IMG/VR virus record: IMGVR_UViG_3300037851_000284
Location: 155,055 to 219,054 of that record
Reading direction: 5' to 3' (one strand)
DNA from: a virus
Lineage: Duplodnaviria; Caudoviricetes
DNA: 64,000 nt
Shown here: piece by piece, positions 1 to 19,625 of the stretch
How the letters are laid out: the number at the start of each line of letters is the position of its first letter
Numbering within the stretch: position 1 is the first letter of the stretch
Translations under genes and position numbers: made by a program
Notes under the pieces: model-generated
The model's database searches: none
The model's input: only the letters and a program-made list of their open reading frames with translations
Told to the model about the DNA's origin: nothing

Positions 1-3000
1 ATTTCCTATCCAATTGTGATGAACCAAAGCTTGGTATACTTGTAGTATAGTTAGAATATATAAGGTTCGGCTTTGTTTTCCACTCATTTAACAACGGGTT
101 AGAATTACTATAAGAGTTCTTTAAGATATTATTTATTATATTACTACGTTGTTTTTTATCATTCATTTTGTTTAATCGTATAAATGCTTCTTTTGAGAAG
201 GAAGCATTAACGGTGTCCAAAGGAACCCGTCTATCAAGTTCTAAATCAGATAGTATTCCGTTATGATTTCCATTAATATCAGAACCTAAATCAACAAACC
301 CGTCTAGAGGATTTAATGAATTAGACATTTGGTTTGGTCTAAAAAAATTAGCAGCTAGAAATACTGCCGCTCCTATAGCTCCAAATTTTCCAGTAGTTTT
401 AGTAAAATTAATTGCTCTAGGATATTCTCTTAGAATCCTTGATCCAAAGCTTTCTGCTGCCTCATTAAAATTAATGTTTTCATAAGGCTCGCCTATTTTA
501 AGTTTATCTAATATACTAATAGCTTTATTCAGTTCTGTTTGTTCACTAATCCAAGCCTTTGATTCTCCCTTTGTTCCAAACTTTTGATGATATTTTATTA
601 TTCCTTCAGTTAATAGTTGATGAGCCTTATCTCTTTCTTCGTTTGTTTCAAAATAATCAGATAAGATATCCTTTAACGCTAAACGTGTCTCTGGATTTTT
701 ATTATATGGATTTGTTAATGCTGCTACTGCTAAAGAAATTCTCTTAATTTTATCGACTCCGTGCTTAATCATGCTAATTGGTAGTTGTTCCATTCCAGCC
801 AATCCAGTAGTTAATGATGTTCCTATAAACTTATTTAAAGTAAGAGTGTTATTTTTAGATAAGCTATCCATCTGCATTATTTGTCTACCTCTGGTTTCTA
901 ATATATTTGTGAATATACCAACTGCTCTTTTAGAAACAGACATCAAGGCTGATTCGTCCACCATCTTTTTAACTATATCATTAGTAACTACACTTGGATC
1001 CCTAGTTGAAATTTTTTCAACCATATCTATTAGATTTCTAAAGTTTCCTTTAATAGCATCTTCTGCGTCTTGACTTCCTAGTTCTACGGTTTTCTCGCTA
1101 ATTCTTCCCGTTTCTCTATCAAAATATCCAACTCTAGCTTTTGAATTTTCAAAACCAATAATTTTTCTTTGTTCACTTATAGCATCTCGAACCGTTTTAA
1201 ATTTACCGTTCTCTTTTATCTTAGTATTTAATATATCAATAAATGACCTGTTAACAGATTCGTGTAAGTTTAACAATTCTTTTTCTGTATTAAAAGCATG
1301 TACCACTCCAAACATTTGGTCTCCGTCAACGTCTCCTCCAACCAACTTCCAATATTCTGCAGCAACTGCTATTCTATTAATATCCATTCCAAAATAACTT
1401 GCTATTTCTTTAGGAACAACATTGAATCTAGCTGTTAAAAAAGGATTGGTTCCAGAAGGAGTATAAGGAGGACGAGTAATAAAACCAGTAAATTTTCTAT
1501 GCATCCATGCTCTATTTTTAATTTCAGAACCGAACACATTACTTATTCTATCATAAAAATTTTTGGTTTGGAGAAATTCAGATTCTTTAACATCAAATTC
1601 GAACTTTTTAAAAGTTTCTTCATGAACCATAACATCATGTAGTGAAAAGTCATTAACTACGTTTCTAGTCCACTTATCTAGAAACTCTGCGTGCTTTCCT
1701 TTAAATCCTCTTGCTCCCCAACCTTCAGAATCCATAATATCTTTAAGTCTTAAATATAAAGAATTAGCATCTTGAGCAGAAGCAGCAAACCCTTGAGGAA
1801 GATGGAGGTCTGTTTCAGAATTATATACATGCCTTAGTAAATATGTAAGATATTGTTTTTTAAGGAAATCTACAGATTCGCCAACAACCTTAGAATCTTC
1901 TTTTTTCATATTTTTTTCTGCCATCATATATGCAAGAAGAACATCATCCATTAATTTAGTACTTCTGGTAGAAAATCCAAAAGCTGTTCCCTTTTTATTC
2001 TCCTTAGATACTAAGTTAATAACATTTTCGTGATGAGCAGGAGCTTCCATTAAAAGATATTTTAATTTAACAGTCTTATTAGTTTTATCAACTTCTGCTA
2101 CAAAACTATCTTTCTTTTTCTTTAGTTTATCAAAGATATTTAATACTTCATCCGTAGATGGCAATTCGTCTTTTGTGGCAATTTGATGTAACAAGCTCTC
2201 TATATCTAGAGTTATTGTATTACCTAATTTAGGATTAACTGATAATGCAAACACTCCTTTCTTTTGAGCTAACATAGCTCTTTGTTGCGCCGATTCTAAA
2301 GACATAATAGTTCTGTTCTTGGGATCTATTACGGCTTTAGCAAAATTATCATTCTCCATATCATCAATTATTTCTCCAGCAACCTTTAACTTTTCTTCTT
2401 CAGAATTCTCATTAATAATATCAGATACTTTTTCAATTAATTCATTTTTTTCATCGTCTCCAAAATTATATCTTTTAAGTGCTTCTAACGATAATCCTTT
2501 TTTAATATCTAATATATCATCTATCTCCTCCAGACTTAACGTTTTCATTGTGCCAATATTAATCATTTTTAACTGGAGTCGCCTAAAGGATCTAATAGCA
2601 TCTCCAAGTTTACCAGATATTCTATGTGCTCTAGCCATTTCTATTATCTTTAAAGAAGTAGTATCTAATGCTCCCAGATGGGCTTTTTGTAATATATTTC
2701 TTCTTACTTTTATACGCGCGGGTCTAGCTTCAGTCCCATTCATTATAGCATAAAAACTAAATCTATCAGGATGTTCTATTCCTATATCCCATTTTCCTCT
2801 ACCTTTATATTTCTGTCTTGCCTCAAATAACATAGGAACTAATTTACCTGTTCTAATAGCTTCTAAATCCGGTAAGATTAATTCATTATAGAAAGTATTA
2901 TCGAAAGCTTTGTCCTTAAAAACGGCGCTAGCCAATCTAGCTGATTTGTTTTCGTCTTTAGATATTTCTTCAAGATAATTATTATATATGTTGCGTATGT

Positions 3001-6000
3001 TCTTTTTAGCGTTTTCTACTCCACCTAAAGCATTATAATAATTTTCTGCCCTTTCTGTCGTCCAAACTTGTCCAGTATCGATCATGAAAGATCTTAATTC
3101 TTCAGTAGTTAGAGAAACGTTTCCAAAGAATTTATGAGCAGCATTAATCAAATTAACATCAGTAACGTTAGGAAACGAGCCAAGATGCGACGACCGATGT
3201 ATAGGTATTTTGGTTATATCATGTATATCGGAATTCATCTTTGCCGCCCAATATTTAAGCTTTTGTTCGGCTACTACTTGTTCTTGAATAGTACCGTTTT
3301 CCATTACATTCAGCAAGTGGTCAAATCCCTTCATAACAGTAATGGTTTTCATTGGTCCAACATAACCCTTCTCTAGAAACTGGGCTGGACCAAATCCCTG
3401 CACTCCACCATACATTTTTTCTCGGGTAATCATATCCATGAATACAGATACTGCTTTACCACTAAGTCCTTTACCAACCATTGATACCCTATCTTTATCC
3501 GTGATAACATATTTGATATCAGCCATCATTTTAATAGAACCAGCACTATCATTCCAGATATTTAATTTAGTAATTCTTCCATTAACAGGAGCATTAAAAC
3601 TAATTTTTCCCAAATCTCCTCTCGAAGCCATATACTTTGTTCCCTTTGGAATTTTTGTAAGTCCTTCGTTTTCCTGTATAACTTCATAAGCCGCATAGTC
3701 ATAATCGTCCTTGGTTAGAGCACTACCTTTTTTACTTTTAATTACTCTTAACTTTTCTTTAATCTTTCCCTCAAGTTTAAGAACTTGATAATTAAAACTA
3801 GGATCCTCGGCCCTAGAAGAAACATCAGAAAGATTAACTCCTATATCAGTATGCTCAAGATTAACATCTTTAAATATTTCAGAAGTAAGATGATGTCCTC
3901 CTTCTTGGCTTCCAAAGTTAGAAATAGTTGAAAAATATTTTACCATAACTGTATTACTAAATAAATGAGTCATAGCATCTGCGTCTCTGCCAAAACTCAT
4001 AAAGTCTAATTCTCCTCTAGATATCCATGGAGGGATAATCTTACGGGCATATTTTCTTAACACGAGAGGATCTAATCTTTCATTCATGGATTTGCTATGT
4101 AGACCAGCGACTACAGCAGAAGTTCCCATCATAAATTGGTTAGCTTGTTTTGCTGGAGGATAATCTGGAATGGGTAAAAAATGTCTAGTAGTAAATATAG
4201 AGAAAGCATATTTAGCCGCTTGACCAGAAGATAATGCTGTAGAAGAAGGAATAAATCCAAATAAGTTTGTCATTTCTATATCTCTAGCATCTTTTATTTG
4301 GTCGTCAAACGACTTAAATGCGTGATAAGAATTATATTTATATTCTAACTCTTCATATGCCGAATCAAATTGTTTTTTTCCTTTATGATATTTTTCCAAT
4401 TCGTGACCTAATAATAAATGTAATAACATACTGTCGGTTCCAGCATCGTGAGCAAATAGAGTTTTGTCATTATTTAATTTTTTTAATAAGGCAGTACTAA
4501 CCACTAAATTACTTTGTGGTCTACCTCTCAAAGTATTTATTGCTTCTATAATATTATTACTTGTTTCAAAATTATGAGCAGATAAACCTTTTTCTTTCAT
4601 CATTAGCTTTAATAAATTAGTTTGAGACAATGACTCTACTCCACCAACCACTACTCTATTAATTTCTACAATTCCATGAACGTCTATATGACTAATATTA
4701 GCATATTTTTTAAGTTTGCTAAAACCGATGGGGTCCTTAGATTCTAAAATTTCAAGCATTTTGAAATCGTAATAGGTTCCGAATTTAGAAGTAAGATATA
4801 TAGGTTTGTCAGGATTTTCTTCAACAACCCTGATTATTTTTTCTACCAAATGTCTTGCGATATCGTTGTTATCTTTAAAATCTCTTCCCTGAGTTTTTGT
4901 TAACGATTTTATTTTTTCTCCCCATTTGTTAATAATATCTTCTGGGGATCTACCTCTTAATTCATTTTTTTCTTGAGCACTAAGATATGTATCTCTTATC
5001 CATTCTGCCTGCTCCATATCAAATGGAAGCTCTTTCATTTTATCAACACCGTGACTGCTAAAAAACTTTTGCATATCATGTAAAGTTACTTTTCCAGTAG
5101 AACTAATATCTGCCACTGAAAATCCAGCTTGAGTTATTTGTGTATGAGCGTCAGTTATTTGAACATTGGGACCAGCTTTCTTATTAGAAATAGTTTCTAA
5201 GTCCACACTTATTACCAGAGCCCCATCAGTTAATCGAGCTAGTCTTTTGAATCCTTGTAAGTCTTTTAGGTTATTACCCCATTTTAATTTATTAGATACT
5301 CGCTCATCCCTATAATAAAACATTCCTTGTTTTATTGGGTCTCTATTAGTTGTTTCGATTCTACTAGCAACCTCAAGAGTATCTCTCATTATAAAATTAA
5401 ACCTACTAAAAGCATGTTCTGGGTTATATTTAAAATCACTAGATAGATTGCTTTTTATATACCTAATCAAATTTCTTATAGTAGCCTGTGTCATATTCAT
5501 ATAAGGCATTTTTTTATTTATAGGCGCAGGGTCAGGAATCTTAACATCATATTTTTGAACTCCATATGGAGATGTTGCTGGTAATATTCCATATTGAGCC
5601 AAAGGAATATTTAAAACTTTTTCTTTCCCTCGAGCAACGTGTTTTGCTGAAAATCTCAAATAATATCTGGGACTCTCCTTAGGACCATCTTGAATTATAG
5701 CTAAACTATGAGATTCAAATCCATTATCTTCGGTAGCTATTTCTTCCAATGCTGCCATTAAACTTTTAATATCATTGGTATAATCAAATTCTCCTAATAA
5801 CTTAAATTCTGGCGTAATTGGAATAAATTTCCTACTATATAGAGATGAAGATGTTACTGGTTTTCTTTTTAGTTCTTCGTTTGATAATACGGTTTTAACT
5901 TTATATTTATTTATTTTCCCAATATAGCGAAGATTAGCTCCTATATTTCTATTGGTTTCTCTAATATTTGTATAAAGCATTAACTGTTTTGTTATTTCAG

Positions 6001-6745
6001 GAGTAATAGAAAATAGCTTACTGGTAGTATTATAAGCCACTATATTATGATTATAATTTGCTTTAAAAGAGGTTAATCTTCTAATATACATATCTGCTAA
6101 ATCAGGATCTTCTCGAGTATATAAATCAATTAGTTTATTTAATTTGATACCGTCTTTATCGGGGTCATTTAATAGTTGTAATTCTTTTCCGTGTCCTTCG
6201 CTTATATACGGATTATGTAAAAAATAATTCTCCAGAATATCTTTTCTTATTTCAAATAACATACTATCTTTATTCATTTTAATAATAGATAAGTATGCTT
6301 TAGGGTCATTAACTTCTCCAATGTTTGAAAAAGTTATATCGTCTTTCATTTTAGATAATATATCGTCTTCTATAGTAGATATTTGATTTAATTTATTAGT
6401 TCTTAAAGTATTGCCAATCCCTCCTTCTGGATAGGCATTTCGAGCCGGAGAAATTTTTTCGATCACTCTATCTATCTCGGTTTCAGGTTGGAATGACCTA
6501 AAAGGTAAATCTAATGTAGCATTAGGTCCAAGAATTCTTTTTTGAGAATCAATACGTTTATAATCTTCTCTTTCGATTATTCTTTTTGCGTTACTATCAT
6601 GAATCCGGTTTATAATATCTTTAGCTGGCCCCTTCATTTTATGAGCAGCAAACACGAGACCAGACAATACTCCAACTTTTAATAATGTTCGAGTAAACCA
6701 CCCTTCGTTCTTATCATTTTTATTATCTGGATAATATTGGTTCAT
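1..6745 (-). CDS. Giant single-chain two-barrel (beta+beta'-like) RNA polymerase with N-terminal DEDDh exonuclease domain; probably virion-associated; 3' end outside the window
   Basis: Not in the ORF track. ATG at 6745 lies 2 nt after the stop of the 2819-aa gene (MNQYYPDNKNDKNEGWF...). All lines I translated in this frame were open, and the track lists no minus ORF here, as expected for an ORF running off the edge. Beta-like motifs: HFLPIPDYPPAKQANQFMMG (~4125-4185), NTVMVKYFS..GSQEGGHHLTSE (~3870-3955), SFNAPVNGRITKLNIW, ITDKDRVSMVGKGLSGKAV (~3450-3505). Beta'-like motifs: TRNVVNDFSLHDVMVHEETF, FITRPP, GGDVDGDQM (1313-1339). Confidence 0.88.
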   Translation of the reverse strand, partial: MNQYYPDNKNDKNEGWFTRTLLKVGVLSGLVFAAHKMKGPAKDIINRIHDSNAKRIIEREDYKRIDSQKRILGPNATLDLPFRSFQPETEIDRVIEKISPARNAYPEGGIGNTLRTNKLNQISTIEDDILSKMKDDITFSNIGEVNDPKAYLSIIKMNKDSMLFEIRKDILENYFLHNPYISEGHGKELQLLNDPDKDGIKLNKLIDLYTREDPDLADMYIRRLTSFKANYNHNIVAYNTTSKLFSITPEITKQLMLYTNIRETNRNIGANLRYIGKINKYKVKTVLSNEELKRKPVTSSSLYSRKFIPITPEFKLLGEFDYTNDIKSLMAALEEIATEDNGFESHSLAIIQDGPKESPRYYLRFSAKHVARGKEKVLNIPLAQYGILPATSPYGVQKYDVKIPDPAPINKKMPYMNMTQATIRNLIRYIKSNLSSDFKYNPEHAFSRFNFIMRDTLEVASRIETTNRDPIKQGMFYYRDERVSNKLKWGNNLKDLQGFKRLARLTDGALVISVDLETISNKKAGPNVQITDAHTQITQAGFSVADISSTGKVTLHDMQKFFSSHGVDKMKELPFDMEQAEWIRDTYLSAQEKNELRGRSPEDIINKWGEKIKSLTKTQGRDFKDNNDIARHLVEKIIRVVEENPDKPIYLTSKFGTYYDFKMLEILESKDPIGFSKLKKYANISHIDVHGIVEINRVVVGGVESLSQTNLLKLMMKEKGLSAHNFETSNNIIEAINTLRGRPQSNLVVSTALLKKLNNDKTLFAHDAGTDSMLLHLLLGHELEKYHKGKKQFDSAYEELEYKYNSYHAFKSFDDQIKDARDIEMTNLFGFIPSSTALSSGQAAKYAFSIFTTRHFLPIPDYPPAKQANQFMMGTSAVVAGLHSKSMNERLDPLVLRKYARKIIPPWISRGELDFMSFGRDADAMTHLFSNTVMVKYFSTISNFGSQEGGHHLTSEIFKDVNLEHTDIGVNLSDVSSRAEDPSFNYQVLKLEGKIKEKLRVIKSKKGSALTKDDYDYAAYEVIQENEGLTKIPKGTKYMASRGDLGKISFNAPVNGRITKLNIWNDSAGSIKMMADIKYVITDKDRVSMVGKGLSGKAVSVFMDMITREKMYGGVQGFGPAQFLEKGYVGPMKTITVMKGFDHLLNVMENGTIQEQVVAEQKLKYWAAKMNSDIHDITKIPIHRSSHLGSFPNVTDVNLINAAHKFFGNVSLTTEELRSFMIDTGQVWTTERAENYYNALGGVENAKKNIRNIYNNYLEEISKDENKSARLASAVFKDKAFDNTFYNELILPDLEAIRTGKLVPMLFEARQKYKGRGKWDIGIEHPDRFSFYAIMNGTEARPARIKVRRNILQKAHLGALDTTSLKIIEMARAHRISGKLGDAIRSFRRLQLKMINIGTMKTLSLEEIDDILDIKKGLSLEALKRYNFGDDEKNELIEKVSDIINENSEEEKLKVAGEIIDDMENDNFAKAVIDPKNRTIMSLESAQQRAMLAQKKGVFALSVNPKLGNTITLDIESLLHQIATKDELPSTDEVLNIFDKLKKKKDSFVAEVDKTNKTVKLKYLLMEAPAHHENVINLVSKENKKGTAFGFSTRSTKLMDDVLLAYMMAEKNMKKEDSKVVGESVDFLKKQYLTYLLRHVYNSETDLHLPQGFAASAQDANSLYLRLKDIMDSEGWGARGFKGKHAEFLDKWTRNVVNDFSLHDVMVHEETFKKFEFDVKESEFLQTKNFYDRISNVFGSEIKNRAWMHRKFTGFITRPPYTPSGTNPFLTARFNVVPKEIASYFGMDINRIAVAAEYWKLVGGDVDGDQMFGVVHAFNTEKELLNLHESVNRSFIDILNTKIKENGKFKTVRDAISEQRKIIGFENSKARVGYFDRETGRISEKTVELGSQDAEDAIKGNFRNLIDMVEKISTRDPSVVTNDIVKKMVDESALMSVSKRAVGIFTNILETRGRQIMQMDSLSKNNTLTLNKFIGTSLTTGLAGMEQLPISMIKHGVDKIKRISLAVAALTNPYNKNPETRLALKDILSDYFETNEERDKAHQLLTEGIIKYHQKFGTKGESKAWISEQTELNKAISILDKLKIGEPYENINFNEAAESFGSRILREYPRAINFTKTTGKFGAIGAAVFLAANFFRPNQMSNSLNPLDGFVDLGSDINGNHNGILSDLELDRRVPLDTVNASFSKEAFIRLNKMNDKKQRSNIINNILKNSYSNSNPLLNEWKTKPNLIYSNYTTSIPSFGSSQLDRK

Positions 6746-6747
6746 AT

Positions 6748-9700
6748 TTATAACCCGTATTTTTCTCTTCTATTAAGAGCGTTAAAAATAGTTCTAGACC
6801 TATCTCTCCTTATTAGTATATCGATCTGGTTGTGTTCGTCTGAGTTATTATTTATATATACTTGGACAGACGATTTAATTCCGTCCTTACTAAACAGATT
6901 ATTAATCGCTCCTCTGATTCCGGCCTGATTAATATTTGGGCTAGGAGGAGAATAATTATTTAATTTTTCTATATTAGCTGCTTTTATATCCATGTTACTT
7001 TCTTGTAAACGCAACATCTGTTCGTTCCAACCCAAACCAAATTCAAATTGATCGAATCCTTGTTCTTGAACAGTCTTTAATTTTATATCATCTAATGGAA
7101 CACTAGGATCCAGCACGCTTCTATCAAATGCGTATTTTGGTCTTCCCGCTGCTATTTCTTCGCTACTTCTTTGTATATAGTTTTTAGTGGCATCCTTACT
7201 ATCATTTTTTGACCATTGATGTTTTAATGCATTAGCTAAATCGTCAGGAATATATTTTAAAATTTCCTCTCGTTTTTTAGGGTCTCTTGTATTTAAGAAT
7301 GATTCTATATATGGTTTCTCGAATGGAGTGGTAGCCCTAAATAAATTAGCGACAGTAGCTCCTTTTCCTCCTTGATTAAACGCTGTTAATGTAGCTTCTT
7401 TTTGTTGTAAGTATTCTTGTTGAGTTAATCCGGTAGACAATTGAGCTAACATGTCATTTCTTTCAAATTTGGCTGCATCAAAGTAAGACATAATCTCTCT
7501 TTTTTCCTTTATTGATGCAGGAATATAAGTAGAATTAGTCATAAATCTGTATAATCCATGACCCGTACCATAAATAGCTCCCGCTCCAACTCCAACAATA
7601 GCGCCTAAAGGTCCGCCTAAAATTAAACCTCCCATACCATAAGATAATGCTCCAGCAAACGGGTCAGTTTTAGCAGCAAGACCCCTAGAATATGGTTCCA
7701 ACCATCCTCTTATTGGTTCATCCCAAGGTTTATATTCCTTTCCATATAATCTGGTCATTTTATAATGTTCTAACGGGTCTTTAGCAGCAAATAATTTATT
7801 TACTATAAAAGTATTAGTATTAGTAAACCGTTCCCACAAGGCACCTATCATTCTTTCTGGCAAACTATATTCTGCTGCTGCTTTTATATCTTCATTAATA
7901 GACTGTATGTTGGCGGTGTTTTCAGGATGTAATACTTTTCCTTTAAATCGATTCGGGTATAGTTCGTAAGATCTAATCCTAGCTTGTTTTATTTTAAGAG
8001 CACTATGATATTTTTCTAAATCGTCTTTATTCAACACTCCATATTTAATTTGAGTATCAACTATCTTTTTTGCTTCTTTATATTCAAGACTATTTGGAGC
8101 TACATCAGCCAATATTTTCAATCTATCAACCCAAGAATAACTGAATCCTAAAGTATCAGCTACTCCTTCTTCCATCATAGTAGCAGCAATTTTTCTTGCT
8201 TCATATAATTTTTTGACATCTTCTTCCCATCTACTTTTACTATAAGGTATATCAAAAGTCTTAACTTGAGAAGGATTTTCTCTATTAACATATAATAACG
8301 TTCCTCGTTTCATATTAAGCATACGTAAATAAAAATTAAGCTGCGAATAATGTTCTGATTTAGGAGCATCTAATACTGCGAATGCTTCGTCGTTAATAGT
8401 TTTAATTTCTAATGCTCTTCTTCCTCTACCTCCATAACCATCTCTAATAATAGCATCAACGTGACCAGTAATGTCGTTCTTTACATCTTGAACAAAAGCT
8501 TCGGCTTGTATTAACATTCCTTCAGACGCTAAGGTTCGTTGTACAGATTCGTGAAATGCTGTTCCTTTTTCCAATATATTGTATGATTCTAATTGAGTCG
8601 GAGGAATTAATCCAGTAAAATATTGGACTATATTTTGCGTTGTTCCTCCAATCATGGAATTATGTACTAATGCAAAAGGAACACAATAATTATGATTATT
8701 TTCAATCGTTAAATCGTACACTTTACCAATATATTTCTTTTTAGAAATAGATTTAATTTTATAAGGTATAAATCCTTTATAAATTAAAACATTAAGTTGT
8801 TCATTATTTTTATCAAATCCAAAAATATTAGATAATACATTTGCTTGATTATCATATAATCTAATATCGTATCTTTGAGTGGATGAAATTATTCTATCTT
8901 CTTTAATAAATTGAACATCTTTTCCTTTTCTATAACATAGTCCTGGTCGAAATCCTAAAGAACATAATAATTTAAATATACTAAATGATAGATTTTCTAT
9001 ACAAGTAGCTACACCTATTTCTGAACCAGATTTTTTATTACTTTTTTTAATATACCAACCATCTCCAGCGAAATAACCAGATAATAAAGCATTAATATTT
9101 TTATTACCAATGTTATAAATTTCTTTAGGAAGATGTTTATTTTTTGCTTTTCCGCATAAAGATTCTAAAATATCTCTCAATATAGTTGAATTTGAAGTAA
9201 CTCTTGCACTATTATTAGTAATTAAAATAGTAGTAGAAGAATGAAATAATTTTTCTGTTATATTTTTAATAAAAGTATGATATTCTATTTCATTAGAATG
9301 AAATGAAAATGTAGTTTGACTAGAAGATAGAGATCCTTCTGCTAAATAAAATCCAATTAATTTCATTAATTCTGAAGTAATATTTAAGTATCTATCATAT
9401 CTTTTTATTCCGTTACTATATACTCCATTTTTTTTAAATGTATATTTATTATATATTTTTAATAATTCAAATAAATCTATACTTTTAATATTGTTTGTAA
9501 TTTTAATAATTGGAGTAACTAAATAATCTCCAGATTCTAAATCTTTAGCTTTATTTTCAGTTATACTATAGTCTGATTCTTTACAATATTTTAATGCGTT
9601 TTTATTTTTACATTCAAAACAACATCTTTTAGATTTTGGTTCATTTGGATAATATTTACATTTATTAGTTTTTATTGAAAAAATATCATGATTATCTGTG

Positions 9701-12700
9701 ACATTAATATTATATTTTTTATTAATTCCAACCAATTCTATATCTAATATTTCTCCATCAAAATCTTTTTCGTGTAATGCTAAAATTTTCTGATAAGTTC
9801 CATCGTTAGTTAATGAGTCTTTAGCGGTAATAATAGGAACTAATCCTTTAGATGTATCAATCAAAGTGTCTGGAGTAAAACAAGCTCTAGCAGGTAACGT
9901 TCTCTTTACGTTTGTATGAGTGCTAAGATATGCATCTCCAGGAAGTCTCAGTTCTCCCCTAAGAATCTTTTCGTATGGGTCTCCTTTTAAAAAGTGAGCT
10001 GGTAACCAGTTAGGCATCCTGTTTGGTATCGGATTTAAACCATACTGTCTATAATTTGGTTTTTCTATTAATCTTCTTAGTGGCTCGGTTAATATACCCA
10101 TACCGCCGAGGTTTAAATCTGTGTAGCTTCTACTAAAAGATGCTATTCTACCGGCTGTTTGTAATGTTGGTACTACAGTATTTTCTCCAAATATTCTATT
10201 AGTTATTGTTCCGGCCAAGAATCCTTTTAATCCGGCAAAGTTTTGTATATCATATAAGAAGTCTTCTGCTGCGGATTCAGACCAGTTCCTATTATTCATT
10301 AGGCTAATTTTTCCAAAATTATTAGCCATTCCTGCTGTAGTATTTCCAGGTCCTCCGTTGGGATTCATTAATGCCATTCCTTCTGGAATAGTAGGAGGTC
10401 TTATAGCAAAAGGATATGGGTCTCCTGGAGTTCCCCCTCTAACAGAAGAACCACCCTCTAGAAACTCTTGATGCATAGTCTTTGGAGGTTTTAATATTCT
10501 ACCAACCGTAGAAGATAAGATTTTGCCAACTCCAGGAAACTCGTCAAAAATACCTCCAGTAATCGGGTAAGGTCTAGTAAAATAATGTGAGTTGTGATAT
10601 GATGCTAAAATTCCAAGAAAAGAGTGAGACTTTTCTATTTTAACATCTATAACATTACCAGAAAATTTAGTAAAATTTATCTCTTTAATTTTAACATAAA
10701 TATAGTTATCATCAATAAAATACCATTTTGGAGACTTTATTTGTTTATTAATTTTAAATCCGATATATGATCTTAAATCATTAATATTATTACCATAAAC
10801 AAATAATAAATGTTGATCTGCTTCATTTTCTTTTTTAGATTTAATATATGAGTATGTTGGTATAAATCCAAGCGAAAATAAAATACTTCTTATTTGAAAA
10901 ATTAAATTTTGTGAAACAGAAATACAAGATATTGAACAATCATTAGATTGATCAGATCCGTTTCCTCTAAAATATCCAATTATTAACTCTTTTAATAAAA
11001 TAGAAGAAGAATAATATATTTCATCTGGGATGTGTTTATCATAACAAGAACTTCCAAAAGAACTTTTAAAAAATCTAGCTAATATCGAATTTGAACAAAT
11101 AATTCTAAATTTATTTCCATCTTGATGCGTTGTGCACTCTATCTTAAACAAAGATTTTATAATCGAAATTACATCATTATGATATTCTGTTTCTTTAGAA
11201 TGAAAATCAAAAACAACAGTTCTATCTCCACAGTATCCTTCCGCTAAATAATACCCAAATAATCTCCATAATAATCTATTTCTAATTATTTGTTTTGGAA
11301 TATTTTTATTATTATGTTTTGTTTGATTGTGAATACTAACATAACCAGAATTTGATTTTTCTTTAATTTTAATTCTAGGATAAACCAAAAAATCATTTTT
11401 TTCTAATTCATCTGCTCTAACCCATTCTGGTATATAATTTTTCTTATATTTACACCTTTTGCATTTTATCCAAGTTTTATTAAAACAAGGAGTTTTTCTA
11501 TTTTTTCTATGAAAACAAATAGAGGATTTAATTGCTAAATATCGGTGTTCTCTAGTAGTTTTATTATCAATATTAGATAAGGCAGTTTTAATAGAAATTA
11601 TATTTTCATCAATATGTTTAATCCATTTTTCTAAAACTTTTTGTTTTGTTCCATTGTGTGTTAAAATAGTATCACCAACATTTAAATCTTTAATTTGTAT
11701 AACTTCACTATTTTCTTTTAATATAAGAGTATCTTCTACTACACAACGCTCCATATAATACGGATCTAATATATCGCCAACGTTAAATCCAAGAAGCGGA
11801 AGAGGCTCGTGTATTAATCGTCTGAAAGCAGACCCATATAAAGTGTCAGTTTCTTTCCATCTTGATTTAGCTCTTACATACCAGTTTGGAGAATATCCTA
11901 CTACATTACTGCCTTCCCATGGAGTTCCTCCAAGCAACCAAGTGGGAGATTTCATTATAGGAACTTCTTTTCTCCCAGAGTATTCTTCTTTTAATTCCTC
12001 ATAAGATTTTGTAAGATTGGGAAGATATGGACTAGCCAGCCTATTAACTAATGCTCCACCAATAGCATATCTAGCAACTCTTAAAGGAGGAGATTTTGAC
12101 ATTAATCCGAGTACACTACCAAACATCATTCCAGGAATAGACGATTCAGAGAAAGGAGCTAACCCATGAAGATATTTCATGGTACCAGTAACACCAGTAA
12201 TATCTGCTACTCGTGCTCCAAATAAACGCGCTTTGGCTATATTATCAGCAGCTAGACCTGTTATTCCTTCTTCTAATGAGGTTTCATCAAATAGTGGGTT
12301 AGATGCAGTTATAGTATCAAGTATTCTATATGCTCCGAATACCGCAGCTGTTGTACCAACCACTCTTCCTATATATTTCAGATTTCCAGTCCACCCATGA
12401 TTTTCCATATAATATTTTTTAAATGGTAACCATTCCGCCATCATGTCCGTGGTTCGTTCGGTGGCTTTTAAGGCAAAGTCTCCAAGTATTTCTAGTCCTT
12501 TATCTGGAAGAGACACAAACGGATGAGGGTCAGTAGCAAACTTTATTCTACTAAAGGTTTTTTCTTGTGATAATTCTATGCTCGATTTAATTATATCATT
12601 ATTAGAAATAAAATTAATTAACTCGTTAGTAATATCCCATTTATTCTGCTTAGCTCTGTCTCTAACGTTATCTAGTATTAATTTTGTTCCATCAGAAGAA

Positions 12701-15207
12701 AAATCCAAACCTTTTATTAATTTATCTTCTCTTATAATAGGAGATAGCTTTGCGTGTAATAATAGAGCATCTTTTTCAGATCGGGTAATTAAATTTTTTC
12801 TATACCATTCTTCAGCTAGATTTAATAAAGGATGCGGTTTGTTTTTATCTGATTTTTTTAGAAAATCTTTATTAAAAACGTCCTCTATAACATTAGTTCT
12901 AGCTACATCATATGATGTCATTTCGGAGAAATGACCAAGCCGTTGTATTACATTATGATGTTTTGCTTTTTCAGGATATGCTTTAATATCTTCTATTGAT
13001 CTTATAACGTCTTTATTAGCAATTTCTCCTTTAGCGTGTAGAGCAGAAATTTTATCAATGAATGTTTGATCGTCCCATATATAAGATAACGGATTATCAT
13101 CTATATCAACTGCTTTAGCGGCTATCGACATAGCATCTCTAGACCTACCTACACGCGAAAGTATTTGGGAAGTGCGACCATAAATAGTATCAATAATAGA
13201 TAACGCTTTACCCATCATGCGAGTATCGTGTTTTCCAAGCGGGTCATCGAATATACTATTAAACTCTAATCTATAATCTTTAGAAGTAGAAAATCTAGAT
13301 TCTATTTTTCTAAATAATTTTTCAGCTGCTGCAGGCAAACCAAGTTTGGCTCTATCTAAAAAGTGTAGCCATTTATTATTTATTATTTTACCATGGTCTA
13401 GTTCTTCAATTAATTTATTATATTCTGCAGTACCAAGTTCGTCTTTTAAATGTTTTAAGCGATTAATAGTAATACTTTTTAATTCATGAGATTTATCATA
13501 TCCCGTTTTGTGTGAGAAATATAAGCTTCTATGAGTATCTACTTGGTGAACTGTAGCTCCGTCAAATATAGACCATTTTCCGCCTTTGGTATAAATATAT
13601 AATCTATTTCCATCTTGGTCTCCTACATCAGCAACGGAACTATAGTTTTTATCATTAAATCTAAATTCGGGTCTATTTCTGGTACCAAAGTAATCAGGAG
13701 AATCAGCAACCCAACGATGAGTATTAGTAAGGTCTGCTAAACTAAAAGTTGATTTAATAAAAGGAGCGCGAACTTGATATGTTAAGATAGGAGATAGTGC
13801 TTTTTTAACTAAGTGGATGGGGTCTAAGAAATTTAAATCAACTCTACCACCTATTATTCTAGGATTTTTCCAATCTTTATATATATTATGTCCTACTGTC
13901 ATATTAAGGATATTATCCATTAATTGATCAGCATCACTTTTTACATATTTTTGCTTAAGATTTCCTAAAACATCATTAATAACATCCTTTTTTAATACGT
14001 CTTTTAATAAAACAGGCTGAAGTACTTTACCGAATATTTTCTGTAAAATAGAGGTTCTGTCTTTATGTTTATGTATTTCTGAATAAAAAGTATCCTTTAA
14101 TTGAGCACCATCTAATGGTATCTTCTTAAGTCCTTTATATTCAGCCTCTTTTCTTGTCCATTCCTGAAATTCATAAAAAGTGTTTAATCCAGCATATTTA
14201 ACAGTAGAAGTAGGACTGGTCTTTGGTTTATTAAGGGCGGCTTTAGCTTCATCTACAGCCGTTTTAAGGAAGCCAAATACCTTTTGGGTACGCTGTCCAA
14301 ATGATATATTAGGTGCCTTCCTTGCCTCTCTAACGGCTTCTGGTAGGGTATATAGAGAATCTTGTAAACTTCTAAAGGCTTCACTTACGTTTTTACCAAA
14401 ATGTAGGCCTTTTTTAATAGAAGAATCGACAAACTCACTTTCGTGTTTAGTTAATAAACCTTGAAATCTATTATCTAATCTATTATCAGAGAATCTAGAT
14501 GCCCAATTTAATACCTTTTTACCGAATTCTCCTTGGAAAGTCTTTTGAACTGTTCTGAATCCTGCAGAACCAATAGCTCCAACTATAGGACCAGCCGCAC
14601 CAAAAGTCATACCGGCTATAGTACTATATCCCAACCACTTACCAAAATTAGATATCTTTCCAGGAACGTCATACCATTCCTTCTTCTCAAGTCCCATATC
14701 TCTAGTAAAACCAAGCATTTGGTCTACACCATAAGCTACAGCCATACCAGAAAGAACATTACGTTTCCATACTCCAGCAACAGATGCTATAAAAGTAGCA
14801 GGGTTTTTAAAAGCAGTTTGTAATCTTTTTATACCATATCCAGACTCACCTTTCATTCCCTCTAGAAGTTTTCTTCTTTCTTGACCGGCCTTGTAAACTG
14901 ATGATTCAGTAATTGTTCTTTTTATGGGAGAGGTATAAGCCTTTATATTTCTATAAGTTGTTATGGTTTTATCTGCTAAATTCTTTCTTATGCCTGTAGT
15001 GGAACCAGCAGACCAAGATTTTAAAGTAGATTTAGAGAAGCCTATTAAACGGCGAGTTACTATAGACCCAGCTATATTTAGAGCAAAAGCTGTCCCCATT
15101 AACTTTAGAGTGGAACCAATTTCCATTCTAGGAGCAACATTACTCTCGGGTTGATAATAATTTTCATTATCATTATCAAGAGGATTATAGTAAGTATTTT
15201 GAGCCAT
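6748..15207 (-). CDS. Giant tail/virion protein in the tape-measure position, with two inteins and a C-terminal PD-(D/E)xK nuclease domain
   Basis: 2819 aa, directly after the tail chaperone-like genes. Long Gly/Ala-rich amphipathic stretches, two Hint+LAGLIDADG inserts, and nuclease motifs GTAFHESVQ...GHVDAII...LEIKT...SQLNFYL (~8230-8580). About 2026 aa after removing the inteins. Confidence 0.7.
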   Translation of the reverse strand: MAQNTYYNPLDNDNENYYQPESNVAPRMEIGSTLKLMGTAFALNIAGSIVTRRLIGFSKSTLKSWSAGSTTGIRKNLADKTITTYRNIKAYTSPIKRTITESSVYKAGQERRKLLEGMKGESGYGIKRLQTAFKNPATFIASVAGVWKRNVLSGMAVAYGVDQMLGFTRDMGLEKKEWYDVPGKISNFGKWLGYSTIAGMTFGAAGPIVGAIGSAGFRTVQKTFQGEFGKKVLNWASRFSDNRLDNRFQGLLTKHESEFVDSSIKKGLHFGKNVSEAFRSLQDSLYTLPEAVREARKAPNISFGQRTQKVFGFLKTAVDEAKAALNKPKTSPTSTVKYAGLNTFYEFQEWTRKEAEYKGLKKIPLDGAQLKDTFYSEIHKHKDRTSILQKIFGKVLQPVLLKDVLKKDVINDVLGNLKQKYVKSDADQLMDNILNMTVGHNIYKDWKNPRIIGGRVDLNFLDPIHLVKKALSPILTYQVRAPFIKSTFSLADLTNTHRWVADSPDYFGTRNRPEFRFNDKNYSSVADVGDQDGNRLYIYTKGGKWSIFDGATVHQVDTHRSLYFSHKTGYDKSHELKSITINRLKHLKDELGTAEYNKLIEELDHGKIINNKWLHFLDRAKLGLPAAAEKLFRKIESRFSTSKDYRLEFNSIFDDPLGKHDTRMMGKALSIIDTIYGRTSQILSRVGRSRDAMSIAAKAVDIDDNPLSYIWDDQTFIDKISALHAKGEIANKDVIRSIEDIKAYPEKAKHHNVIQRLGHFSEMTSYDVARTNVIEDVFNKDFLKKSDKNKPHPLLNLAEEWYRKNLITRSEKDALLLHAKLSPIIREDKLIKGLDFSSDGTKLILDNVRDRAKQNKWDITNELINFISNNDIIKSSIELSQEKTFSRIKFATDPHPFVSLPDKGLEILGDFALKATERTTDMMAEWLPFKKYYMENHGWTGNLKYIGRVVGTTAAVFGAYRILDTITASNPLFDETSLEEGITGLAADNIAKARLFGARVADITGVTGTMKYLHGLAPFSESSIPGMMFGSVLGLMSKSPPLRVARYAIGGALVNRLASPYLPNLTKSYEELKEEYSGRKEVPIMKSPTWLLGGTPWEGSNVVGYSPNWYVRAKSRWKETDTLYGSAFRRLIHEPLPLLGFNVGDILDPYYMERCVVEDTLILKENSEVIQIKDLNVGDTILTHNGTKQKVLEKWIKHIDENIISIKTALSNIDNKTTREHRYLAIKSSICFHRKNRKTPCFNKTWIKCKRCKYKKNYIPEWVRADELEKNDFLVYPRIKIKEKSNSGYVSIHNQTKHNNKNIPKQIIRNRLLWRLFGYYLAEGYCGDRTVVFDFHSKETEYHNDVISIIKSLFKIECTTHQDGNKFRIICSNSILARFFKSSFGSSCYDKHIPDEIYYSSSILLKELIIGYFRGNGSDQSNDCSISCISVSQNLIFQIRSILFSLGFIPTYSYIKSKKENEADQHLLFVYGNNINDLRSYIGFKINKQIKSPKWYFIDDNYIYVKIKEINFTKFSGNVIDVKIEKSHSFLGILASYHNSHYFTRPYPITGGIFDEFPGVGKILSSTVGRILKPPKTMHQEFLEGGSSVRGGTPGDPYPFAIRPPTIPEGMALMNPNGGPGNTTAGMANNFGKISLMNNRNWSESAAEDFLYDIQNFAGLKGFLAGTITNRIFGENTVVPTLQTAGRIASFSRSYTDLNLGGMGILTEPLRRLIEKPNYRQYGLNPIPNRMPNWLPAHFLKGDPYEKILRGELRLPGDAYLSTHTNVKRTLPARACFTPDTLIDTSKGLVPIITAKDSLTNDGTYQKILALHEKDFDGEILDIELVGINKKYNINVTDNHDIFSIKTNKCKYYPNEPKSKRCCFECKNKNALKYCKESDYSITENKAKDLESGDYLVTPIIKITNNIKSIDLFELLKIYNKYTFKKNGVYSNGIKRYDRYLNITSELMKLIGFYLAEGSLSSSQTTFSFHSNEIEYHTFIKNITEKLFHSSTTILITNNSARVTSNSTILRDILESLCGKAKNKHLPKEIYNIGNKNINALLSGYFAGDGWYIKKSNKKSGSEIGVATCIENLSFSIFKLLCSLGFRPGLCYRKGKDVQFIKEDRIISSTQRYDIRLYDNQANVLSNIFGFDKNNEQLNVLIYKGFIPYKIKSISKKKYIGKVYDLTIENNHNYCVPFALVHNSMIGGTTQNIVQYFTGLIPPTQLESYNILEKGTAFHESVQRTLASEGMLIQAEAFVQDVKNDITGHVDAIIRDGYGGRGRRALEIKTINDEAFAVLDAPKSEHYSQLNFYLRMLNMKRGTLLYVNRENPSQVKTFDIPYSKSRWEEDVKKLYEARKIAATMMEEGVADTLGFSYSWVDRLKILADVAPNSLEYKEAKKIVDTQIKYGVLNKDDLEKYHSALKIKQARIRSYELYPNRFKGKVLHPENTANIQSINEDIKAAAEYSLPERMIGALWERFTNTNTFIVNKLFAAKDPLEHYKMTRLYGKEYKPWDEPIRGWLEPYSRGLAAKTDPFAGALSYGMGGLILGGPLGAIVGVGAGAIYGTGHGLYRFMTNSTYIPASIKEKREIMSYFDAAKFERNDMLAQLSTGLTQQEYLQQKEATLTAFNQGGKGATVANLFRATTPFEKPYIESFLNTRDPKKREEILKYIPDDLANALKHQWSKNDSKDATKNYIQRSSEEIAAGRPKYAFDRSVLDPSVPLDDIKLKTVQEQGFDQFEFGLGWNEQMLRLQESNMDIKAANIEKLNNYSPPSPNINQAGIRGAINNLFSKDGIKSSVQVYINNNSDEHNQIDILIRRDRSRTIFNALNRREKYGL
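8659..9882 (-). mobile_element. Intein 2 (408 aa, LAGLIDADG) in the 2819-aa protein
   Basis: Junctions LPARA|CFTPDTLI ... FALVHN|SMIGG. Block B VTDNHDIF; LAGLIDADG blocks LIGFYLAEG and LLSGYFAGDG. Confidence 0.93.
10591..11745 (-). mobile_element. Intein 1 (385 aa, LAGLIDADG) in the 2819-aa protein
   Basis: Junctions YYMER|CVVEDTLI ... ILASYHN|SHYF. Block B TTREHRYL; LAGLIDADG-like blocks LFGYYLAEG and IIGYFRGNG (second has N in place of D). Confidence 0.93.
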
Positions 15208-15755
15208 TATTTAGGGATACCTAGGTGAGCGCTTATTTTATTCATTTTTTCCTGTAGACTTTTACCTTCATCAGGAAGTTTGTTTGTATTTATAAGTCCG
15301 TGTTTTTTACCAATATCAAAAATCTGTTTACCAGTTATATATTCACATAAACAAACTAATTCTAGAAGGTCTTTAATATTTAACTTTAATAATTCAGTAA
15401 AAGATTGTCCAGGAAGATAAGTTAATATATTTTTAATAGCAATCATCGCATCATCTTTCTTTAAACTCTCCCTAAATTCGTTTATAGTAATTTCGAAAAG
15501 TTGAGATGATTCTAATAATCCATTTATTCGTTTAAGTACATCTTCGCCTATTTTCATTCTTACAACGAAGGGAACCTTATCTGGATCTAATTGATATATA
15601 ACTTGTCTACCAGCTATATCATATTTAACCCCCTCATTTTTAATATTAGATAAAAAACTATATTCTAAAGTATTAAGGTCTCTATAATAAACTTCTGTTT
15701 TCTTTTTATCTATCACACACGAAATTTTATAAAGCTTTGTATTTCTTGTAAACAT
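15207..15755 (-). CDS. Putative tail assembly chaperone-like protein
   Basis: 182 aa between the small chaperone-like gene and the giant tail gene. YYRDLNTLEY resembles the YFRTLTREDY motif of its neighbour. Confidence 0.5.
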   Translation of the reverse strand: MFTRNTKLYKISCVIDKKKTEVYYRDLNTLEYSFLSNIKNEGVKYDIAGRQVIYQLDPDKVPFVVRMKIGEDVLKRINGLLESSQLFEITINEFRESLKKDDAMIAIKNILTYLPGQSFTELLKLNIKDLLELVCLCEYITGKQIFDIGKKHGLINTNKLPDEGKSLQEKMNKISAHLGIPK

Positions 15756-15769
15756 AAACCTCCAAAATT

Positions 15770-15806
15770 AAAAAAGACCAAGAGGCTCTAAGCCCTTGGC
15801 CTCTTT
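15770..15806 (-). terminator. Rho-independent terminator
   Basis: Minus strand GGCCAAGGGC-ttaga-GCCTCTTGGTC followed by a T run. Confidence 0.7.
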
Positions 15807-15826: not shown

Positions 15827-16126
15827 TTATACTTCTTCTATATCACCTATTTCAAATCCAGAAGCTAACATTATCTTTTCAGCTAGAACCGTGGATATTC
15901 CGGCTTTATTCTTAAGCTCTGCAGGATCTAAAGGAGATAGTACACATTTCCTTACTACTTCTATATCGTGGTCAAAAGCCCTAGGATCACTAGCTTGGAT
16001 AGCCAGTATATCCATATAATCTTCTCTGGTAAGAGTTCTAAAATAAAAATCTTTACCCAAAAGATTCATACGATATACGTAAGTATACTTGTCTTTCCAC
16101 TCTTTTACTTGTTCTTGAATTTCCAT
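15827..16126 (-). CDS. Putative tail assembly chaperone
   Basis: 99-aa acidic protein with a YFRTLTREDY...CVLSP...AGISTVLAEKIMLASGF pattern; position between the tube-like genes and the tape-measure-like gene. Confidence 0.55.
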   Translation of the reverse strand: MEIQEQVKEWKDKYTYVYRMNLLGKDFYFRTLTREDYMDILAIQASDPRAFDHDIEVVRKCVLSPLDPAELKNKAGISTVLAEKIMLASGFEIGDIEEV

Positions 16127-16178: not shown

Positions 16179-18488
16179 TTATTCGGACCAAATATTCTTA
16201 GGATATTGAGTCTCTTTAGCAGCTTGATAATCCTGATTTAGTTTATAAATATTTGGAGTACTTTCAGGTGTAGTATAGTTTTTATTAGTTTGCATTTTTA
16301 ACGTTTCTACCATCTCGTCCCTAGGTAAATTTTTTATTTTAGGAGGGACATAAGGAGGATTAGGTTTTACTTCGTTTCCATAGTTATACCCATATGGAGT
16401 AGGTGTTGTGTTTCTATATCCTATTCCTAGATTTCTTCTTATAGTTTTTTCAAACATTACAGGAGAATAAAACTTTTTCTCCGATTGTAAGTGATAGTGG
16501 TCGTTTATATAATCTACGCGTGTACCAATTTCAATCTTTTGTCCCACTTTTAAATTTTTCGTATATGAACTAGGAATATGAGCGTATCTTACTACACCTT
16601 GATTAGTTCTAATGCTAAATGATTCTTTCCCTATTGAATAAACTTCTCCCCCAAAAGCAGCAGGAGCATAACCTGCTGTTTTTGTTATATTATTCTTTTT
16701 TATTATATTACTTATATCTGCGAAAACATAATTACTTTTTCCAGCACTCAATGGATGTTCATCAGCCCTAGTAAAGTGAGTAATAGTTGTTCCAGTAATA
16801 GCAACTCCAGTTTCTGAACCATCGCTGGTCATATCTGATGCTTTTGGAACAATATTCTTTTTCTCTGTATTGGCTATTTGTTCTACTTGTTTTAAAGCTT
16901 CAGCTTCATTTCTAGCCTCTGCTGAGTTTTCTTCAAATATAGAAAGAGAATAATTTGGTGCGGGTTCTTGTTTAGTTTCTACTTCTTTAATCTTATTTTT
17001 TTCTCTTTCTTTAGGAGTTAAAGATTCCTGCTTAGGAGCGCTAGGTGGTTTTCCCCAGAATAAATCTTCTCTAGATAATAGGTTGGTTGCTTTAAATCCT
17101 GTTCTGGTAGGAGATATTACTTTAAATGTGTATGTATCTGGGATTCTTTGTTCTAATATCATGGTAATTTTTTCATCAGGAATAGTAGTATTACCATTTA
17201 AATTACCAAAAGTAGTAGCGACTATGAGTTGAGAATACCTTGATAGGTTTACAGGATCTGTATCAGTTACTTTAGCATTTATTACATTCTCAACAAAAGA
17301 ACTTAATTGGTCTATAAATGGAGTGACTTTATTATAAGAAAAAGATAATTTACTAATAACTTTATTCAAAGGTTTCCAGCCATTGTTACGTAAGAAAGAT
17401 GCCTCAGTAGCAACAGTAACATAAGTTCCTTGTTTATCATCTAGGAAGTTCTCAAGTTTTTCTATATCTTCATATTTTGATAATTTACTATCTGTTCTGA
17501 CAGAAAGTTTAACTGGATTTAATCTTATTACACTATTTGAGCTTGTAATACTATCATTTATATCCCTAGCTATAAAAGTGTACATTTCTCCAATGGGGTC
17601 TCCAGTTGGGGCAACTATTAAACTATTACTGGTAAAATGAACATCGTTTAATATTATTACTGTATGTTCCGCCCTATAATCATTAATATCTCCAAAGGTT
17701 AACATTATATTTAATACATTAGCATAACTTCTACCTTTAGCTGTTATTATACCACCGTTAGTTTCATGATAATCAAACTCGTCGGCTCTTTTAATCTTAT
17801 TCAAAAGAGTAAGCTGCTTACCATTCTGGTCTCCCCATATACTATCTTCTAATATTTCGGCAAAATCCTCAAAATCTCTATTCTCACGATCAAAACCCAT
17901 ATCTTGACTCAAACTGGTAGAAATCTTTTTACTAGATAATATTTGTTCTATAGTTTGACCTTGTCGTATAAAGTTTGGTGTTCCATCAAGATTATAAACC
18001 GCTTCAACTTTAGTACCATCTTCGTTTATAGTAGTTAATCCAGGAACGAACTCTTGTTTATCTTGCAGCTCATCAGAATAAGATTTTAACTTTCTCTGAA
18101 CTGCTTCAGCTTTATTTTTCCTTTGAGAATCTATAAGAGCTTGAATTATATTTAAATAACCAGTTTCTTTAAAGGCAATAGCTAGATTACCTTCTACTAT
18201 TACCTGTCCCTTAGCTATAGCATCAAAGTTCTGAGAAGCATACCCATAAATAGGAACTTTAGATTGAGTAACATTATATTGGATAGTAATTATATCATCC
18301 ACCCAGACATCACCAAAAAATATCTTACAGTCAGTTCCTGCAAAATAATCATACGGATAAGTTTGATAGTTATCTCTAAATGCCGTTGCTGAAGTAAATG
18401 GGTCTTTAGATGAACCGGAAAAACTCTTAGCCTGTTTTTCCTGCATTGCGGTCTTAGTCTGCCTTAATTGATTTTGTAAGTCTACCAT
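16179..18488 (-). CDS. Tail-tube-like/baseplate hub protein with C-terminal M23-like peptidase region
   Basis: N-terminus YFAGTDCKIFF...TQSKVPIYGYAS...GQVIVEGNL parallels the tube protein. C-terminus AAFGGEV...RYAHI...KVGQKI...DHYHLQ fits the M23/LytM pattern. Confidence 0.6.
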   Translation of the reverse strand: MVDLQNQLRQTKTAMQEKQAKSFSGSSKDPFTSATAFRDNYQTYPYDYFAGTDCKIFFGDVWVDDIITIQYNVTQSKVPIYGYASQNFDAIAKGQVIVEGNLAIAFKETGYLNIIQALIDSQRKNKAEAVQRKLKSYSDELQDKQEFVPGLTTINEDGTKVEAVYNLDGTPNFIRQGQTIEQILSSKKISTSLSQDMGFDRENRDFEDFAEILEDSIWGDQNGKQLTLLNKIKRADEFDYHETNGGIITAKGRSYANVLNIMLTFGDINDYRAEHTVIILNDVHFTSNSLIVAPTGDPIGEMYTFIARDINDSITSSNSVIRLNPVKLSVRTDSKLSKYEDIEKLENFLDDKQGTYVTVATEASFLRNNGWKPLNKVISKLSFSYNKVTPFIDQLSSFVENVINAKVTDTDPVNLSRYSQLIVATTFGNLNGNTTIPDEKITMILEQRIPDTYTFKVISPTRTGFKATNLLSREDLFWGKPPSAPKQESLTPKEREKNKIKEVETKQEPAPNYSLSIFEENSAEARNEAEALKQVEQIANTEKKNIVPKASDMTSDGSETGVAITGTTITHFTRADEHPLSAGKSNYVFADISNIIKKNNITKTAGYAPAAFGGEVYSIGKESFSIRTNQGVVRYAHIPSSYTKNLKVGQKIEIGTRVDYINDHYHLQSEKKFYSPVMFEKTIRRNLGIGYRNTTPTPYGYNYGNEVKPNPPYVPPKIKNLPRDEMVETLKMQTNKNYTTPESTPNIYKLNQDYQAAKETQYPKNIWSE

Positions 18489-19579: not shown

Positions 19580-19590
19580 AATTTTTAGGT

Positions 19591-19620
19591 ATAAAGCCCT
19601 TGTTTTATTAAGGGCTTTAT
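19591..19620 (-). terminator. Terminator-like inverted repeat after tail tube exon 3
   Basis: ATAAAGCCCT-10 nt-AGGGCTTTAT perfect 10-bp stem just after the stop at 19626. Confidence 0.65.
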
Positions 19621-19625
19621 TTTAA

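Follow-up and report, generated by a model that had tools for sequence, protein, structure and literature searches.

A giant gp145-family protein with two inteins and an exonuclease-like nuclease domain in the tape-measure slot of an uncultured phage

Does the giant protein encoded in the tape-measure position of an uncultured phage act as a ruler for the tail, or is it something else that the virion carries? The question is raised by a single open reading frame (ORF) in the 219,054-bp genome of IMG/VR record IMGVR_UViG_3300037851_000284, a single contig, of which bases 155055-219054 were analysed (a stretch of 64,000 nucleotides (nt), here called the window; positions are window positions unless stated otherwise). 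The ORF (6748..15207, minus strand, as are all of its neighbouring genes) encodes a precursor of 2,819 amino acids (aa; P0001), corresponding to 2,026 aa after removal of two inteins, and is a homologue of gp145 of Bacillus phage 0305phi8-36. A first-pass annotation, made from the letters of the window, had described one giant ORF in tape-measure position, separated by 2 nt from an RNA polymerase-like gene and carrying a Cas4/RecB-like nuclease and two inteins; the single ORF and the gap to the next gene, which begins with an ATG at 6745, were confirmed by the ORF coordinates. The explanation preferred here, at a probability of roughly 0.55, is that the gene encodes the intein-bearing precursor of a virion-delivered, nuclease-bearing partner of a virion RNA polymerase, which fills the tape-measure slot; judged from its predicted structure, the protein is probably no classical coiled-coil ruler.

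Nuclease domain in a family of giant virion proteins

The first-pass annotation had read a complete PD-(D/E)xK set with a QxxxY motif behind the second intein, and profile and fold comparisons bore this out. The motifs lie at aa 2215 (GTAFHE), 2248 (GHVDAII), 2266 (LEIKT) and 2288 (SQLNFYL) of the precursor, within a region (aa 2209-2340) that matched the Cas4-like family phrog_1706 with E = 9.6e-19 and also matched phrog_2506 (exonuclease) and phrog_1990 (Cas4-domain exonuclease). In a weak phmmer match (E = 0.15) to Cas4 SSO0001 (4ic1), GHVD, LEIKT and QLNFY were aligned residue for residue, the two proteins sharing motifs II, III and QxxxY. The C-terminal half was modelled with AlphaFold on a homologue that lacks inteins (P0003, aa 958-2041; 74% identity to the C-extein), with a pLDDT value (a prediction of the local distance difference test) of 79 and a predicted template modelling (pTM) score of 0.79. 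Searched with Foldseek, this model matched SSO0001 (E = 7.9e-5) and lambda exonuclease (E = 9.4e-4), and also LHK-Exo, MGME1, Dna2 and AdnAB; in VIA-align it was superposed on LHK-Exo (3syy) over 162 aa (Z = 13.1, root-mean-square deviation (rmsd) 3.7) and on SSO0001 over 148 aa (Z = 13.1, rmsd 3.3). The domain thus has the same fold as the lambda exonuclease, LHK-Exo and SSO0001 class (Z 11-13), but whereas those enzymes are free-standing, it is embedded here in a protein of 2,026 aa and is split by an intein near its start.

The position of that split follows from the structural alignments, which start 7 to 45 residues ahead of the site of intein 2. The final 7-45 residues of the middle extein (depending on the alignment) are therefore the beginning of the nuclease fold, and its main part (aa 2184-2350; 8158..8658, minus strand) lies behind the intein, with D2251 at 8455-8457, E2267-x-K2269 at 8401-8409 and Q2289xxxY2293 at 8329-8343 (all minus strand). 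Since the fold is interrupted, the model predicts that the nuclease most likely forms only once intein 2 has been spliced out.

The first-pass name for the domain could be kept in part. The lambda-exonuclease/Cas4-type fold and motifs stood, but the assignment to Cas4 proper (DUF83) did not, because the exteins hold no cysteine in 2,026 aa, so that the four iron-sulphur cysteines of that family are missing and no such cluster can be held; going by its sequence, the domain is best called lambda-exonuclease/RecB-like.

The first-pass annotation had also named a loss of the nuclease motifs in homologues as an observation that would speak against it. No such loss was seen among the 89 nearest homologues: H2219 was kept in 83, E2236 in 84, D2241 in 87, D2251 in 88, E2267 in 85, K2269 in 87, Q2289 in 86 and Y2293 in 86. 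Conservation was looser in the wider family (220 members collected), D...(D/E)xK being kept in 144 of the 197 alignable sequences, and in several distant subclades the acidic residue of (D/E)xK is exchanged for K, Q or N, the domain itself being retained (P0085, P0110, P0118 and P0131 are among the deviant members, and the Q of QxxxY is changed to E as well). These deviations bear on the alternative that the nuclease fold is a DNA-end-binding or purely structural module that cuts no DNA. It would account for the 53 deviant sequences, many with K, Q or N, that nevertheless keep the domain; a few of these are, however, alignment errors around inteins, and both the clade of the phage studied here and a clade of Bacillus phages keep the metal-binding/catalytic residues and QxxxY at a level of at least 95%, which makes a non-cutting domain very doubtful. 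Catalysis is accordingly considered likely in these two clades but would not be universal in the family, and the domains of the deviant subclades may be inactivated or rewired nucleases. Because several distant subclades lose the acidic residue, the domain may additionally have a structural or DNA-binding role.

Homologues were found by tblastn of the exteins against phage records in Bacillus phages 0305phi8-36 (ORF145), KLEB27-3, WH1 and Edson and in Moorella phage MTATph1, while megablast of the giant gene against phage records gave no match. The giant protein is colinear with gp145 in six blocks (aa 1044-2730) that run across both intein sites and include the nuclease motifs, and this homology places it among the giant virion proteins of the 0305phi8-36 gp145 family. 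Absence from virions had been the other observation held to count against the first-pass annotation, and in its GenBank record gp145 is given as a virion protein identified by mass spectrometry. The homology covers the conserved half of 1,100 aa with its nuclease motifs (D, DIK and QQLNFY in gp145), and gp145 likewise has no cysteine. In contrast to the giant protein, gp145 has no inteins, carries an insert of some 75 aa within its nuclease domain, and has a shorter N-terminal part that could not be aligned; its record annotates no nuclease, and no function has been assigned to it. A profile of the conserved half matched 2,991 cluster representatives (clusters at 50% identity) at E of 0.001 or less, and 1,199 at E of 1e-30 or less. 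Pfam gave no match for five extein segments or for five distant relatives, and NCBIfam gave none for the exteins. In KLEB27-3 (L002, 9292-16445), the family gene appears as two ORFs, gp031 (1,340 aa) and gp033 (677 aa), separated by an ORF of 211 aa, at which neither a Pfam match nor an Rfam intron was found.

Two inteins in the most conserved blocks

Both inteins of the first-pass annotation were recovered by class 1 motifs, by Pfam matches (Intein_splicing, E = 4.7e-18; LAGLIDADG_3, E = 1.2e-9) and by their exact absence from intein-free homologues. Intein 1 (385 aa; 10591..11745, minus strand) starts at C1155, has TREH as block B and ends in HN1539, followed by S1540 as the +1 residue; in intein 2 (408 aa; 8659..9882, minus strand) the corresponding elements are C1776, TDNH, HN2183 and S2184. 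In a MAFFT alignment of the 89 homologues, the inserts were exactly 385 and 408 aa long and lay precisely at the called boundaries when compared with members that lack inteins (about 2,040 aa). Joining the exteins in silico, as had been suggested, gave a protein of 2,026 aa with the junctions MER-SHY and ARA-SMI, identical to those predicted beforehand. By these motifs both elements are class 1 inteins with a LAGLIDADG endonuclease, and they are predicted to splice.

Allelic inteins were present in the same alignment at site 1 in four other members and at site 2 in two others. The +1 residue at site 1 is Ser/Thr in all five carriers (5/5) and Lys in 67 of the 89 sequences overall; the +1 Ser of site 2 is native in 84 of the 89. 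The two inteins are paralogues of each other (32% identity, E = 3e-32), their guanine-plus-cytosine (GC) fractions are 0.229 and 0.220 against 0.34-0.39 in the exteins, and the genome holds no further inteins of the same type. Intein 2 keeps both acidic residues, E and D, of its LAGLIDADG motifs (aa 1950-1958 and 2042-2051). The corresponding motifs of intein 1 lie at aa 1316-1324 and 1409-1418, and its splicing blocks are intact. Its first motif keeps the E, but the second (GYFRGNG; 10954-10983, minus strand) has Asn where the four allelic inteins have Asp, because of which the homing endonuclease of intein 1 may be disabled, being inactive or merely a nickase. Each intein also contains a zinc-finger-like cluster of four cysteines between its splicing and endonuclease parts (11452-11520, aa 1230-1252, in intein 1 and 9583-9663 in intein 2, minus strand), and the 22 cysteines of the precursor all fall within the inteins.

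The N-extein (aa 1-1154; 11746..15207, minus strand) is mainly helical, is only weakly conserved up to about aa 950 and is compact in the AlphaFold model; it is followed, after intein 1, by the strongly conserved middle extein (aa 1540-1775; 9883..10590, minus strand) and, behind the nuclease domain, by a conserved helical C-terminal region (aa 2351-2819; 6748..8157, minus strand). The earlier claim that the inteins sit in functionally constrained segments was borne out, as both occupy the best-conserved blocks. The family as a whole is an intein hot-spot: at least one large insertion was present in the conserved half of 81 of the 220 members, insertions with an HN[CST] junction group at no fewer than 11 sites, and some members are as long as 4,392-4,920 aa.

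A conserved pair of giant genes between chaperone-like genes and the hub

In the order of transcription, a tail sheath gene (22419-25184; 9 cysteines), tube-like pieces, a 99-aa ORF, a 182-aa ORF, the giant gene, a gene of 2,250 aa, a hub-like gene of 2,349 aa and a Baseplate_J gene follow one another. The position described in the first-pass annotation, after chaperone-like genes, was confirmed: the product of the 99-aa ORF (15827..16126, minus strand) is a homologue of the domain common to gp143 and gp144 of 0305phi8-36, both annotated as 'hypothetical tail chaperonin' (E = 8e-14 and 1.6e-8). The stop of the 182-aa ORF (15207..15755, minus strand) overlaps the start of the giant gene, and an ORF of 175-185 aa likewise adjoins the start of the family gene in six close relatives. 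Family searches with the 182-aa ORF gave no match; its product may be a dedicated partner or chaperone of the giant protein. The giant gene thus stands where a tape measure is expected, between chaperone-like ORFs and a hub-like gene, but it shares this slot with a second giant gene (2..6745, minus strand, crossing the window edge). The same gene order was found in 0305phi8-36, in KLEB27-3 and in two metagenomic contigs. In 0305phi8-36, sheath, tube and chaperone-like genes precede the family gene, the last being the two 'hypothetical tail chaperonin' genes, and gp146 ('hypothetical tape measure' in GenBank) and the hub gp147 follow it; the chaperonin genes there stand one gene removed from the putative tape measure gp146 (PMC2147016).

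Three further features of this gene block were recorded. A hairpin of 14 pairs with a T-run (15771-15806, minus strand) lies inside the 71-nt gap between the 99-aa and 182-aa ORFs and could reduce expression of the giant genes relative to the sheath and tube genes; the count of such sites in the region was not above chance. The tube-like pieces (phrog_9206; 16179-22153, minus strand) are broken up by two phrog_4645 endonuclease ORFs. The 2,349-aa hub-like gene, third of the giant genes (genome 147812-154861; L003 11813-18862), matches phrog_20474 ('endolysin', of the gp147 hub type) and contains 11 cysteines, unlike both preceding giants.

The first-pass annotation had linked the giant gene to the adjacent RNA polymerase-like gene, and this link gained support from other uncultured phages. 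Full-size members were present in 26 IMG/VR loci (within the L005-L042 set), and in 25 of these the family gene is succeeded by a second giant gene encoding 1,242-3,023 aa, with a small ORF in between in 3 cases. A D-x-D-[GA]-D motif was present in 20 of these 25 second giants, lying in 15 of the 20 at 75-85% of the protein length; by chance, each protein should have about 0.06 of them (an estimate made here from residue frequencies). The same motif occurs in the neighbour in the window (DVDGD, aa 1805), in KLEB27-3 gp034 and in the second giant of a 198-kb metagenomic contig, and the DxDGD-type motif is the evidence here that the neighbour is a giant RNA-polymerase-like protein. BLAST comparisons among the window neighbour, 0305phi8-36 gp146, KLEB27-3 gp034 and the metagenomic second giant gave no similarity, and jackhmmer from the second giant reached its close clade only; the evidence for homology of the second giants is therefore their position, their DxDGD motif and their lack of cysteine.

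That lack is common to both members of the pair. No cysteine is present in the exteins (2,026 aa) or in the neighbour (2,250 aa), against 1.3% genome-wide; the median is 0 in 66 intein-free homologues, the range is 0-4 in 24 second giants, and gp146, like gp145, has 0. Proteins that pass envelopes in an unfolded state, or that function outside the cytoplasm, typically avoid cysteine, and its lack in both giants therefore fits delivery through the tail. In most loci, both giants also have a short polar N-terminus that leads into a hydrophobic helix rich in Gly/Ala (in the window, aa 34-50 of the N-extein, 15058-15108, and 6640-6700 in the neighbour; both minus strand), which may be a common signal for assembly or membrane insertion. 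The long Gly/Ala hydrophobic helices noticed earlier in the giant protein were located at four places, aa 34-50, 195-217, 1022-1037 and 2519-2552, the last being a Gly-zipper helix in the C-terminal region (7552-7653, minus strand).

Ruler, ejection protein or delivered enzyme

Like the C-terminal half, the N-terminal half was predicted to be compact (pLDDT 79, pTM 0.77), and both halves consist of helices of mainly 10-40 residues together with beta domains. For the N half, searches of the PDB (Foldseek), AlphaFold DB clusters, the Atlas and the VIA wide set reached at best E = 0.02 and Z = 5.3, values at the noise level for helical proteins. For the C half, solved structures in the PDB matched the nuclease domain only, although the other domains were searched inside the 1,084-aa model, in which a known fold may be missed. 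Profiles made from block A3 (central) and block A4 (C-terminal) gave nothing below E = 0.28 against PDB sequences, an ESM Atlas feature search with the central block gave no usable match, and simple motifs such as HExxH and the P-loop were not found in P0001. Over the whole length, the fold was best matched in BFVD and AlphaFold DB by entries named 'Large polyvalent protein associated domain-containing protein', and A7KUR9, which we take to be gp145 itself, was also among them. Neither an LPD nor a metallopeptidase domain of Pfam was detected in the giant protein or in five relatives.

Contractile-tailed phages need a tape measure, and no candidate other than the two giants was found between the chaperone-like genes and the hub, so one of these two may be the ruler after all. 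The giant protein could accordingly be a true tape measure, extended in the tail tube and setting the length of the tail, with the nuclease as its cargo, and the neighbour would then be purely an injected polymerase. Its place directly behind chaperone-like genes, with the overlapping stop of the 182-aa ORF, would be that of a tape measure; its hydrophobic Gly-zipper helices resemble those of many tape measures (PMC10770324); and the polymerase-type DxDGD motif in most relatives of the neighbour weakens the older assignment of the ruler to the second gene. That assignment, to gp146 in 0305phi8-36, had been made by Hardies et al. on its fit to tail length (PMC2147016) and argues against a ruler in the gp145 position. 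So do the compact predicted halves with their short helices and beta domains, and a sequence far better conserved than that of the neighbour, which is unusual for a ruler; the lack of any Pfam, PHROG or NCBIfam tape-measure match is weak evidence, since such proteins diverge fast. A ruler role for the giant protein is thus regarded as unlikely, though it deserves serious weight. Of the earlier description as a tape-measure-position protein, the slot between chaperone-like genes and the baseplate hub was upheld, whereas identity as a tape measure found no support in folds or family matches.

A compact fold of about 230 kDa could not be fitted, folded, into a tail tube, and this leads to a different possibility: that the giant protein is an internal ejection protein of the capsid, comparable to the core proteins of T7 or the virion polymerase of N4, outside the tail lumen and encoded in the tail block incidentally. 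Freedom from cysteine and hydrophobic helices are what would be expected of such an envelope-crossing protein. The conserved, tight placement between tail-chaperone-like genes and the hub speaks against it, however, as do the translational coupling to the small upstream ORF and the fact that no head-module neighbours were seen, and location in the head is considered quite improbable.

Under the preferred explanation, that of a virion-delivered partner of an RNA polymerase, both class 1 inteins would have to leave the precursor before the protein can work, and the spliced product would be built into the virion with the help of the small upstream proteins. At infection it would leave through the tail, partly unfolded, a step with which the lack of cysteine, in this protein as in its polymerase-like neighbour, agrees. 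Its hydrophobic helices would be used at the cell envelope, the protein would then refold, and the nuclease would act on DNA ends inside the cell, those of the entering phage genome or of host DNA, alongside the co-delivered polymerase. The channel building and injection that the first-pass annotation had ascribed to the two adjacent proteins would be part of such a module.

Several points tell against this explanation. Besides the looser conservation of the catalytic residues in distant subclades, the structural or DNA-binding role that this would allow and the shortage of other ruler candidates, the presence of the protein in the virion of this uncultured phage is argued by analogy with its homologue gp145; ejection, membrane insertion and nuclease activity are predictions; and the compactness of the AlphaFold models describes the free protein, not its state inside a tail.

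The closest precedent for an enzyme in a tail tape protein is gp96 of Thermus phage P23-45, in which a tape measure and a virion RNA polymerase are fused; its authors picture the protein as being metastable while in the tail tube and as entering the envelope by injection (PMC10770324). Like the giant protein, gp96 is a giant of the tail slot in which membrane segments are joined to an enzyme acting on nucleic acids, believed to be delivered on infection. P23-45, however, is a siphovirus and has one protein of 5,002 aa, whereas two genes occupy the slot here; the enzyme of gp96 is a polymerase and that of the giant protein a nuclease, no metallopeptidase is present in the giant protein, and no sequence homology was found between the two. 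The concept of a large multi-domain protein delivered together with invading DNA is also shared with the polyvalent proteins of phages and conjugative elements (Iyer et al. 2017, PMC5512222), where the likeness is one of fold to entries so named, neither a Pfam LPD match nor HExxH having been found in the giant protein. That paper makes no mention of the gp145 family, tape measures, Cas4 or inteins, and a literature search on a tape measure with Cas4 in jumbo phages returned nothing relevant.

The gp145 family comprises some 3,000 sequence clusters for which no family model exists, and the nuclease has gone unannotated in its sole studied member; cultured relatives are available in 0305phi8-36, KLEB27-3, WH1 and Edson. 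The gene is, to our knowledge, among the densest intein targets in a structural gene, which makes it useful for tracing exchange between jumbo phages that co-infect a cell. The fixed pairing of the two giants casts doubt on the tape-measure assignment made for 0305phi8-36 in 2007 and, together with their shared lack of cysteine, points to a delivered set of two enzymes. Delivered phage proteins decide the first minutes of an infection, and only a few of them have been recognised in jumbo phages with contractile tails. A bolder proposal, put forward here as speculation, is that the slot in a large clade of jumbo phages with contractile tails is without a conventional ruler and holds instead a conserved pair of cysteine-free enzymes threaded through the tail, the nuclease protein clearing a way at the envelope and its lambda-exonuclease-like domain then resecting the end of the entering genome to give single-stranded DNA for the co-delivered exonuclease-RNA polymerase. 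If this were true, the single-stranded DNA would be a template or a handle for the polymerase, and entry of the DNA would be coupled to its first transcription.

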